Below are positions 25,095 through 28,360 of a DNA stretch of 64,000 nucleotides, in pieces (the first letter of the stretch is position 1; each line of letters opens with the position of its first letter). The DNA is from Dictyostelium discoideum (Eukaryota). The DNA is taken from NCBI GenBank assembly GCA_000004695.1, contig CM000152.2:4864001-4928000 (forward strand), read 5' to 3'. The notes under the pieces were generated by a model that had not been told where the DNA came from, did no database searches, and was given only the letters and a program-made list of their open reading frames with translations. Made by a program: the position numbers and the translations under genes.

Positions 25095-26665
25095 ATGGAT
25101 ATATTTGACAGTACAATTACATCTTTTGAAGATTTTCCATCTGAACGTTTCAAAGAGCAATTAGAATCCCTCACCTATGAATCAATAGAAAGAGCTAGCC
25201 AATTCGTGTTGGAGAACCTTCCATGCATAGATGATTTATTCGATGTTTTGCTAAATAGAATGAGAAAGGTAAAGTATTTGTAACGATGACACCAATATTT
25301 GTTACTATTATTCAATATAAATAGATTGTGTTATAATGTAATTTAATCACCATATATAATTCAAACCTTTTTTTTTTTTTTTTTTTTTTTTTTTTTTTAT
25401 AAAAAAAAAAAAATTATCACACACAATAATTCCATCTTTTGTAGAAAAATATAGAGGTTTTTCATAGAAAATAAAAGGTTCCTTATTTTTATAATTGATA
25501 ATAATAAAAAAAAGAGGTTGTTTAAATTCAATAGGAGACTGTATTAAAAAAAAAAAAAAAAAAGGGAAAATTCAACAATAAAATTTATTATTATTTATTT
25601 ATTTATTTTTAGGTCTTTTTTTTTTTTTATTTGAATATTTTTTATAATAGAAAGTAGTTTTAATTGAAATTTGATTTTAAAATTTCATTTTAATATAAAT
25701 AAGAAGAAAAAAGAATAAAATAAAGAGAAAGAATTAAAATGGCATGCCTCATTATAATAATCTCTATATTTTCATTTCCAATTATTATTTTTTTTTTTAA
25801 AAAAAAAAAAAAAAAAAAAAAAACAAAATAAAGGTAAAAAAAAAAAAAAAAAATATTAATATAAAATCTATTTATTTATTTATATTTGTTTTTTTTATTT
25901 TTTTTTTTATTTTTTTATTTTATTTTTATGCCCATTCGTTTTCATTATTATTATTATTATTTTTATTATTATTATTATTATTATTTTTATTATTATTATT
26001 ATTATTATTATTATTGTTATTATTATATTTTATAGAGTGCATATCATAAAAGATTATTATTTTTTAATTTAATAGATTGTATATGTATTGGTTGTAGTAG
26101 AATAGAAAACGATGTATATAAGAAATTTATAATAAACAATGTGGATGAAATAATACCGTTGATTTTACCAGATGATAATTTAGAAGTAAAGAAAAAGAAT
26201 AGAGAAACAATTGAAAGAATAATAAGATCATGGTCAAATAACCATGTTTTCAATGATACATTTATATCGAGAGCTTTCTCAATTCTATCTGGTGTTGCAA
26301 AAGAATCGAGATCAATTTGTCCAAACCTTTCAGAGAAAGAAATCGCCCGACTATTAAAAAGGATGGAAGAAAAAAGAAAAGATCAAAACAAGAAGAGGCT
26401 TGACCTTGAAGATTCTCATCCTCTTGATGAATTTTTAGAATTATGGTTTAATTTTAATTTAGATAATTCATCATCATCATCATCATCTTCATCCTCATCA
26501 TCATCCTCATCATCGACAACAACAACAACAACTACTACATCAGAACTATCATCTATATCGACATCATTAAATAGTATTAGGACCAATAGTAGTTGTAGTA
26601 ACAATAATTTACAAATAGATATAGAAATTATCGAAAAAGAAAAAGAAAAACAAAAAGAACATTAA
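25095..26665 (+). CDS. CID (RPR / CTD-interaction domain) protein, Pcf11/SCAF8/RPRD-like. Proposed exons: 25095..25268 and 26036..26665.
   Basis: Exon 1 reads 'FEDFPSERFKEQLESLTYESIERASQFVLENLPCIDDLFDVLLNRMRK' and aligns with the Pcf11 CID N-terminus. It ends at a GTAAAG donor. The only phase-0 acceptor I found is the 'ttttatag' at 26034-26035. Exon 2 gives 'SAYHKRLLFFNLIDCICIGCSRIENDVYKKFIINNVDEIIPLILPDD...KKNRETIERIIRSWSNNHVF', which resembles the CID C-terminus. The intron would be 767 nt, which is long for this genome. The ORF ends at a TAA at 26663. Confidence 0.55.
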
Positions 26666-28360
26666 TTTAATTCATTTAATGATACATCTATAACGACACC
26701 ATCAACATCATCATCAACAACATCATCATCATCATCATCATCATCATCATCATCATCATCATCATCATCATCATCATCATCATCATCATCATCATCATCA
26801 TCATCATCATCATCATCATCATCATCATCATCATCATCATCATCATCATTAGATAATAGTACTACTAATGATAACAATAATAACACAAGTAATAATAAAA
26901 ACAATAACAATGATAATTATAATAATCAATCAATTTTAGAAAAGGAAAGAATATATAAATTAGATTATGAAGTTTATGACTCATTTAAATCTCAATTTAC
27001 AATACCAGAATGGCCATCTTATGAAATTGAGGATATAGATTTATTCACAAGTGGAAATGATGGTGAATATCAAGACTATATAGAAAATGAATATAATTCT
27101 TTTGATCAAAATAGTTATTTAGAATATAAAAAGAAATATAAAAATAATGAATTTGAAAATAGTATTGGTAATAGTAATAATTATTATAATAGAAATAGTA
27201 GTAATAATAATAATAATAATAATAATAATAATAATAATAATAATAATAATAATAATAATAATAATAATAATAATAATAATAATAATAATAATAATGAAGA
27301 CAGTGGTAATTTTATGAATAGTATATTAAATTATTGTTTTTATGAACATAAAAATCATTTCAATTTTATAAAGAATAATAGGAATAATCATTATCCATAT
27401 AATACTAGTGGTTATTTAAACAATCGTGTCGATAATTATCAACCTTATTCCCCAAAAACAACAAGTGATTCTCATAAATTACAAGAGTATTTCAATAAAA
27501 TAGATTATATGAATAAAAATGGAATTAGTGTTGTTGATATTTGCGCAAAATCAAAATCATTCGAAATTCCTAATATTTGTGGCGCTGATGGTGGTGATAG
27601 TGACAGAATGGATATTGATACCAACAATTCTCTCAAAAATGAAAACAAGCAAAATGATAGTCATAGAGGAAAAAGTAGAAAAAGAAGAAGTTCAAGTAGA
27701 GGTGAATCTGAACACTCTAGATATTATCGAGATTCTAGTAGGGATGCCAAGGATAGAGACAGTAGAGATCATAGAGACAATAGAGATCATAGAGATAGCA
27801 GGGATCATAGAGATAGAAGAGATAGTAGAGATCATAGAGATAGTAGGGATTACAGGGATCACAGAGATAGTAGAGATTATAGAGATAGTAGAGATAGCAG
27901 AGACAGTAGAGATAGTAGAGATAGAGAAAGTAGAGACAGTAGGGACCATAGAGAAAGTAGAGACAGTAGGGACCATAGAGAAAGTAGAGATAGTAGGGAA
28001 TATAGAGAGAGTAGGGATCACCGAGATCATAGTAGAGATAGTAGAGATCAATACCGAGATAAAGATCACCGAGATTCTTCTGATGGTAGAGATCATAGAA
28101 ATAGGGATGATAAATATCAAATCGATAAAAGAGATAATCAACATCACAATGAAAGAAATGATAGTAGAAATGATAGGAATGATAAAAATGATAAAAATGA
28201 TAAAAACGATAAAAATGATAAAAATCAAGAGAAATATAGCGAAAGATATCACAATGAAAGAGATTCAAGAGATAATGAAAAGGATTTCTATAGAAGTAAA
28301 GAAACTATGGTCAATAATGATAATAGAAGCTCAAGTAATAGAAGCAGCAATCGGCATTAA
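26666..28360 (+). CDS. Poly-Ser / poly-Asn / RD-RE dipeptide-repeat (RS-like) ORF in the same frame as the CID gene. The first in-frame ATG is only at 27314.
   Basis: The reading frame is open for 565 codons from the TAA at 26663-26665. It contains a (TCA)n poly-Ser tract, 'QSILEKERIYKLDYEVYDSFKSQFTIPEWPSYEIEDIDLF', poly-N, and a C-terminal 'RDSRDHRDNRDHRDSRDHRD...' domain of ~150 aa. Confidence 0.5.
   Translation, partial: FNSFNDTSITTPSTSSSTTSSSSSSSSSSSSSSSSSSSSSSSSSSSSSSSSSSSSSSSSSSLDNSTTNDNNNNTSNNKNNNNDNYNNQSILEKERIYKLDYEVYDSFKSQFTIPEWPSYEIEDIDLFTSGNDGEYQDYIENEYNSFDQNSYLEYKKKYKNNEFENSIGNSNNYYNRNSSNNNNNNNNNNNNNNNNNNNNNNNNNNNNNNNEDSGNFMNSILNYCFYEHKNHFNFIKNNRNNHYPYNTSGYLNNRVDNYQPYSPKTTSDSHKLQEYFNKIDYMNKNGISVVDICAKSKSFEIPNICGADGGDSDRMDIDTNNSLKNENKQNDSHRGKSRKRRSSSRGESEHSRYYRDSSRDAKDRDSRDHRDNRDHRDSRDHRDRRDSRDHRDSRDYRDHRDSRDYRDSRDSRDSRDSRDRESRDSRDHRESRDSRDHRESRDSREYRESRDHRDHSRDSRDQYRDKDHRDSSDGRDHRNRDDKYQIDKRDNQHHNERNDSRNDRNDKNDKNDKNDKNDKNQEKYSERYHNERDSRDNEKDFYRSKETMVNNDNRSSSNRSSNRH

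Follow-up and report, generated by a model that had tools for sequence, protein, structure and literature searches.

A conserved dictyostelid CID gene of Dictyostelium discoideum AX4 interrupted by one in-frame TAA, probably through a recent single-base nonsense change

The window in this study is a 64,000-nt stretch of Dictyostelium discoideum AX4 chromosome 3 (GenBank assembly GCA_000004695.1, contig CM000152.2, positions 4,864,001 to 4,928,000 of the forward strand). Positions 25095-28360 of this window hold coding sequence for a CTD-interaction domain (CID), followed in the same reading frame, beyond a single TAA at 26663-26665, by coding sequence that ends in Arg-Asp (RD) repeats. An earlier note on this DNA had proposed that the CID open reading frame (ORF) and the RD-repeat ORF may be one gene. 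The features of the locus, all on the forward strand, are as follows.

25095..25268, +: exon 1, 58 codons (MDIF...NRMRK), donor AAG/GTAAAG; orthologues share SFDDFPTERFKEQLE...DLFDVLLNRMRK
25269..26035, +: intron 1, 767 nt, 87% AT, GTAAAG...TTTATAG; an intron lies at the same NRMRK/SA position in Tieghemostelium lacteum and Cavenderia fasciculata
26036..26662, +: exon 2 before the TAA, 209 codons, comprising the remainder of the CID, two conserved helices and an S/T-rich linker (from Pfam, PDB RPRD2 and alignments)
to about 26269, +: end of the CID in exon 2
26315-26398, +: conserved helix ICPNLSEKE..KKR (orthologue alignments)
26417-26446, +: conserved helix HPLDEFLELW (orthologue alignments)
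26663..26665, +: in-frame TAA, first codon of a 9-nt tandem
26666..27313, +: 216 stop-free codons without a start, opening with a short unique stretch
26700-26849, +: (TCA)n, poly-Ser
26960-27046, +: conserved motif LDYEVYDSFKSQFTIPEWPSYEIEDIDLF (BLASTP against T. lacteum)
27169-27295, +: (AAT)n, poly-Asn
27314..27670, +: region from the first in-frame ATG, which is in poor context (ttttATG)
27443-27502, +: conserved near-C-terminal motif PYSPKTTSDSHKLQEYFNKI; four orthologues end within ~10 residues after it
27671..28360, +: C-terminal extension with no counterpart in the orthologues found, stop TAA at 28358-28360
within the extension, ahead of the RD/RE repeats, +: RS-like patch KSRKRRSSSRGESEHSRYY
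27728-28111, +: RD/RE-dipeptide repeats with 9/18/27-nt periodicity
28169-28225, +: NDK repeats

In the frame whose codons start at positions equal to 2 mod 3, stops between 25862 and 28400 occur only at 26033, 26663 and 28358. This is the frame of the CID ORF, which is open over 26036-28360 apart from the TAA, and the other two forward frames over 25862-28400 contain many stops. The stop map bears out the earlier description of one frame with a lone internal TAA, with 564 codons (26666-28357) counted after it. A codon scan likewise agrees that the first in-frame ATG, at 27314, is preceded by 216 start-less codons; it is also the first of any ATG, GTG or TTG beyond the TAA. The claim that so long a stop-free stretch is improbable by chance has to be made with care. 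About 74 of the 216 codons are pure (TCA)n or (AAT)n, in which a stop is impossible in that frame, and they contribute trivially. The claim holds for the non-repeat core of 114 codons (26852-27193): its chance of being stop-free is ~1e-6 from composition, none of 200,000 shuffles of it was free of stops, and the other forward frames of the same core have 5 and 39 stops. The open frame beyond the TAA is real and far above chance. Codon-position composition is equal on either side of the TAA, and the DNA around it is 73-78% AT, which is exon-like, compared with 86-91% in the introns and intergenic spacers of the window. The ATG at 27314 has a T at -3; three real starts nearby all have an A there. 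AATAAA signals are found beyond the stop of the downstream ORF.

The CID does not begin with the ORF that opens at 26036. Exon 1, ending AAG/GTAAAG, splices to 26036 (TTTATAG/AGT), and full-length Pfam matches to CID (1.2e-9, 38.9 bits, cut-off 23.9) and to the CTK3 N-domain (PF12243; 5.9e-9, 36.5 bits, cut-off 23.7) are obtained only with the spliced exons. The alignment to the RPRD2 CID runs across the splice junction (RK/SAYHKRL versus RRSAYPHRL). Thus the earlier assignment of a CID is supported by Pfam, but only once exon 1 (25095-25268) is added. The 62-codon ORF at 25095-25283 is an exact match to DDB_G0281731 (XP_640608.1, 62 aa, hypothetical protein), which is exon 1 plus four intron codons (VKYL). 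XP_640608.1 remains only as a UniParc/RefSeq entry.

Homology searches of the protein collection recovered four relatives.

P0001: Cavenderia fasciculata DFA_07072, 500 aa
P0004: Acytostelium subglobosum XP_012754100 (SAMD00019534_060480), 486 aa
P0005: Tieghemostelium lacteum DLAC_08654, 379 aa
P0002: EukProt dictyostelid model, 331 aa

In alignments all four are single uninterrupted proteins that carry motifs from both sides of the TAA. The blocks are colinear. Before the position of the TAA lie the CID, ICPxLSEKE..REQKKKKY and HPLExFxExW, followed by a variable low-complexity linker; CID and helices together are 45-53% identical between D. discoideum and the orthologues. The block DYxVYxxFKxxFxLPxW, with a Q/N-rich stretch behind it, falls in D. 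discoideum after the TAA and before the ATG at 27314, and the block YSPxxTS..Y[FL]xxI near the C-terminus falls past that ATG. Used alone in BLASTP, the start-less segment 26927-27196 matches residues 252-310 of T. lacteum P0005 in colinear position (E=4e-9); the C-terminal motif alone matches T. lacteum residues 357-375 in a pairwise comparison (E=0.006).

We also mapped the exons of two orthologues, T. lacteum and C. fasciculata, on genomic DNA. The T. lacteum gene has exactly two exons, with a 501-nt intron at NRMRK/SA (locus 3178-3678) and an exon 2 that is one 320-codon ORF. C. fasciculata has a 116-nt intron at NRMRK/SA (locus 3668-3783) and a single exon that reaches from where the CID ends up to the C-terminal motif. 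The position of this phase-0 intron, behind NRMRK, is conserved across dictyostelid groups. Because the two exon maps agree, the ancestral structure as read from these sequences is exon 1, intron and one long exon, a structure that the D. discoideum locus fits save for the TAA. The claim of one gene is therefore supported: the orthologues are single proteins, and the region lies within one exon in both T. lacteum and C. fasciculata. A comparison of orthologues for a continuous ORF from CID to RD repeats, as the earlier note had suggested, gave a divided answer, since continuity from the CID to the C-terminal motif is found in all four and the RD tail in none.

The D. discoideum gene thus shares with the DFA_07072/DLAC_08654 group the colinear blocks on both sides of the linker and the NRMRK intron. 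Members of that group are uninterrupted, 331-500 aa long and end ~10 residues past the last motif, whereas the D. discoideum copy has a longer linker (~165 aa), the in-frame TAA and an RD/RS-like extension of ~285 aa. The linker that contains the TAA spans from ~20 residues in C. fasciculata to ~165 in D. discoideum, a variability which shows that constraint on it is low. Compared with its 116 nt in C. fasciculata, the NRMRK intron has an unusual length in D. discoideum (767 nt) and in T. lacteum (501 nt). The orthologue models look imperfect: DFA_07072 carries a 20-residue mini-exon FPVQERTQSINQDAVIDVIV (locus 4209-4268) present in no other orthologue, and the EukProt model P0002 is without most of the CID. 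A ribosomal L7Ae-family gene adjoins the CID gene in both C. fasciculata (locus 5860-6347) and T. lacteum (888-1335).

The TAA itself is the first codon of a 9-nt tandem, TAATTTAAT (26663-26671) followed by TCATTTAAT (26672-26680). The sole mismatch of the two copies is A26664 versus C26673, which aligns the stop with a TCA serine codon (stop-FN/SFN). Equally similar tandems occur at ~0.8% of positions in the non-microsatellite coding parts of the same gene. Because the copies differ only at this base, we infer that the codon at 26663 was originally TCA and that a single C-to-A change took place. Among the causes listed in the earlier note, a sequencing or strain nonsense change came first, and this alignment with the adjacent copy makes it the best supported.

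We believe that 25095-28360 is probably one two-exon gene broken by a recent single-base nonsense change, which may be a real allele or an error of base calling. The gene would be the D. discoideum orthologue of the dictyostelid CID protein group and would encode ~832 residues, in the order CID, two helices, long low-complexity linker, DYxVYxxFKxxFxxPxW, poly-Asn, YSPxxTS..Y[FL]xxI and RD/RS-like tail. A C-to-A change in the variable linker would have turned the TCA serine into TAA. As given, the locus would yield only a 267-residue product consisting of little but the CID, or an mRNA prone to nonsense-mediated decay. The 564 codons downstream would then be untranslated, yet they are without decay, which suggests that the change is very recent. 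A nonsense allele of the AX4 laboratory lineage is put slightly ahead of a base-call error of the reference, beside a 150-nt triplet repeat. Programmed bypass of the TAA is presumed to be absent.

Several observations weigh against this conclusion. Base 26664 is known from the reference sequence alone, and the TCA to TAA polarity of the tandem mismatch would follow from parsimony only. An exhaustive HMMER scan, for which exon 2 alone was the query, found no protein of D. discoideum, D. purpureum, D. firmibasis, D. citrinum or D. dimigraforme, and yet the scanned collection includes genomes of D. firmibasis, D. citrinum and D. dimigraforme as well as those of additional D. discoideum strains. 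Since an intact gene should give a gene model and none is found in group 4, the group-4 locus may be systematically unusual. Either gene predictors fail at this locus in all group-4 genomes, or the locus is unusual throughout the group.

Other searches agree in finding no D. discoideum protein. Homology searches returned only distant orthologues, with no D. discoideum exon 2 or RD ORF protein among the matches listed. In exact look-ups, a collection of 15 billion proteins contained neither the three possible bacterial-style ORFs that end at the TAA (174, 168 and 100 aa) nor the ORF of 348 aa nor the spliced product of 267 aa. Metagenome scans across the TAA by protein pattern and by DNA pattern gave no match. 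The D. firmibasis cct3 locus with its 10-kb flank ends ~7 kb short of the expected CID locus; in the window, cct3 includes the ORF at 39527-40990.

An unannotated GT-AG intron that removes the TAA is an alternative that we regard as unlikely. In-frame GT..AG pairs around the TAA do exist, and the best runs from 26598 (GTAACA) to 26939 (TCAATTTTAG), removing 342 nt in frame to give ...NSSC-K-KERIYKLDYEVY... Its donor begins GTAA as in three real donors of the window, its acceptor has a T-run, and the segment excised would be a linker that varies between ~20 and ~165 residues among orthologues. However, such pairs are expected by chance, with five GTs (26574-26598) in the 90 nt before the TAA and 24 AGs after it. 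The earlier note had stated that no GT donor exists in the 80 nt before the TAA; GTs in fact lie at 26589, 26592, 26595 and 26598, none of them a strong donor. The candidate intron is 75% AT compared with 87-91% for introns of the window, and it holds the (TCA)n in the serine frame and is open in the frame of the gene save for the one TAA. No intron lies at this position in T. lacteum or C. fasciculata, and splicing would make the relation of TCA to TAA in the tandem a coincidence. A division of the region into two independent genes, of which the first, with the CID, would end at 26665 and the second, with the RD tail, would start from the ATG at 27314, appears quite improbable. The reference seems to split the region, with the stub DDB_G0281731 and two further DDB_G numbers before the inositol-phosphate-kinase-like gene DDB_G0281737, and the downstream ORF opens with an ATG and has AATAAA signals past its stop. 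Nevertheless, no AT-rich spacer, promoter-like tract or terminator separates the two ORFs, and 26666-27313, which resembles coding DNA, has no stop and shows homology to interior parts of the orthologues, would stay untranslated. In addition, the ATG at 27314 is in poor context (T at -3) and the 348-aa product is one of those missing from the protein collection.

Programmed or regulated readthrough would produce two isoforms, one of 267 aa with the CID only and one of ~832 aa that adds the conserved motifs and the RD tail; we give this reading very little credence. The downstream frame is fully intact and conserved, and a T at +4 makes a comparatively weak UAA context. On the other hand, UAA is the least leaky of the stop codons, and to our knowledge the context CAT-TAA-TTT-AAT fits no known motif such as UGA-CUAG or UAG-CAA-UUA. 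A stop at this position is absent from all four orthologues, and there are no tRNA genes in the window. In the literature searched, no natural readthrough gene is documented in Dictyostelium, and the one mention of readthrough in this organism, in a paper on eRF3 aggregation (PMC11537047), is speculative. It is also very improbable that the TAA is genuine, conserved in group-4 Dictyostelium and bypassed by readthrough or an unconventional splice. A conserved TAA of this kind would explain the missing group-4 gene models. If true, one locus would give a short CID-only protein and a long isoform with the C-terminal motifs and the RD/RS-like tail, and Dictyostelium would have its first described case of natural recoding.

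Three other candidates were rejected. One lesion in a 2.3-kb AT-rich ORF is too few for an ancient pseudogene, TAA is the wrong stop codon for selenocysteine or pyrrolysine recoding, and there is no evidence for a U12 or AT-AC intron.

The protein belongs to the CID superfamily, within an orthologous group specific to dictyostelids. Against Pfam CID (PF04818) the orthologues reach 47.8-74.4 bits, and T. lacteum scores 67.4 bits against the CTK3 N-domain. The match to the RPRD2 CID in PDB (4flb/9hm8) is 8e-5 with a single sequence and 6e-12 with a profile, and the profile search also gave the Ctk3 N-domain (3e-7), Rtt103 (1e-5) and RPRD1A (7e-5), with RPRD1B, Nrd1 and Pcf11 listed as well. In an AlphaFold 2 (AF2) model of the T. 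lacteum orthologue, pLDDT exceeds 90 over residues 9-150 and is low over the rest, including the helices after the CID. In a fold search with this model, the non-canonical CID of Schizosaccharomyces pombe Ctk3 (5ce7) was the top match at 8e-7, followed by RPRD1A, Rtt103 and Pcf11, with SCAF8 at rank 8; the model matches solved CIDs at TM 0.8-0.9 on the target. The predicted fold suggests that the protein is most like an RPRD- or Ctk3-type factor associated with the CTD of RNA polymerase II (Pol II), and that it is nuclear.

RPRD2, RPRD1A/B and Rtt103, which bind the Pol II CTD, include the best sequence-profile match of the CID, and the CID fold superposes at TM 0.85-0.90 on the target, but the CREPT/coiled-coil C-terminal dimerisation domain of RPRD/Rtt103 was undetected by Pfam in the D. 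discoideum pieces and the orthologues. In the pairwise alignment with RPRD2, the helix that binds the CTD has its canonical 'ND' displaced by one residue (FFNLIDC versus FYLANDV). For Ctk3, the gamma subunit of yeast CTDK-I, the CTK3 N-domain is above cut-off and 5ce7 is the top fold match, whereas CTK3_C, the cyclin-binding C-terminal helical bundle, was undetected even at E<=10.

The earlier note had compared the locus with the SCAF4/SCAF8 architecture. SCAF4 and SCAF8 resemble the D. discoideum gene in having an N-terminal CID and then a charged Arg-rich low-complexity tail. As homology, this is not supported. Pfam searches gave no RRM match at E<=0.1 with the D. discoideum pieces or at E<=10 with the orthologues and the tail. 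In the profile comparison RPRD2 is nearest to the CID, and in the fold comparison Ctk3 is; no SCAF CID is among the sequence-profile matches at E<=1, and the CIDs of SCAF8 and SCAF4 appear as fold matches at rank 8 and below. SCAF tails are RS tails, while the D. discoideum tail is RD/RE with an RS-like patch (27671-28111). Since the RD/RE tail is missing from all orthologues found, the SCAF resemblance is convergent at best. The protein is not a member of the SCAF4/8 family. No Pfam family was found in the RD tail. As judged from sequence comparison, this tail appears to be a lineage-specific extension, specific to D. discoideum among the orthologues found, and its likeness to RS tails is one of analogy only. 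Four of the six frames of the RD-repeat DNA have no stop, with further ORFs at 27519-28412 (+), 27692-28252 (-) and 27735-28268 (-). Because the 9/18/27-nt periodic repeats keep these four frames free of stops, the RD-repeat ORFs are not independent coding evidence.

The neighbourhood of the gene was also examined. The gene at 28895-30703 (-) appears to encode a membrane protein in two exons, separated by an 81-nt GTAAGT..ATAG intron. Its 575-aa spliced product was absent from the protein collection, as was a hand-spliced neighbouring-gene product of 386 aa. Logan contigs of this neighbour gene are 100% identical to the window over 28750-30554, all retain the 81-nt intron, and they break at long repeats; the runs SRR28564543, SRR28564540, SRR26869267 and SRR26869268 have contigs identical to the window. 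The Logan contigs are confined to the neighbour gene and consequently are silent on base 26664. DDB_G0281737 is IPMK (PMC9328663), which fits the inositol-phosphate-kinase-like ORF at ~33.5-34.1 kb; in the literature on DDB_G0281731 and its neighbours, only this identity was found. An Rfam mir-7131 precursor matches at 55668-55756 on either strand, with 96 and 94 bits against a gathering score of 74, and the match on both strands indicates that the hairpin is near-palindromic.

Most likely the in-frame TAA has an ordinary cause, namely a nonsense change of one base, whether real or artefactual, in a conserved gene that is mis-annotated. This CID gene is conserved across all four dictyostelid groups, and the AX4 reference shows only the 62-residue stub DDB_G0281731. 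Consequently, analyses based on the proteome miss the CID and the conserved C-terminal motifs. Should the TAA prove to be a base-call error, one base of the reference would have to be corrected and a new gene model of 832 aa added. The RD/RS-like tail would illustrate, on a small scale, how a CID protein acquired a charged low-complexity tail independently of proteins of the SCAF type. A real TAA in AX4 could mean that the standard laboratory strain is a natural truncation mutant for a factor associated with the Pol II CTD, and this would bear on transcription and RNA-processing work in AX4.

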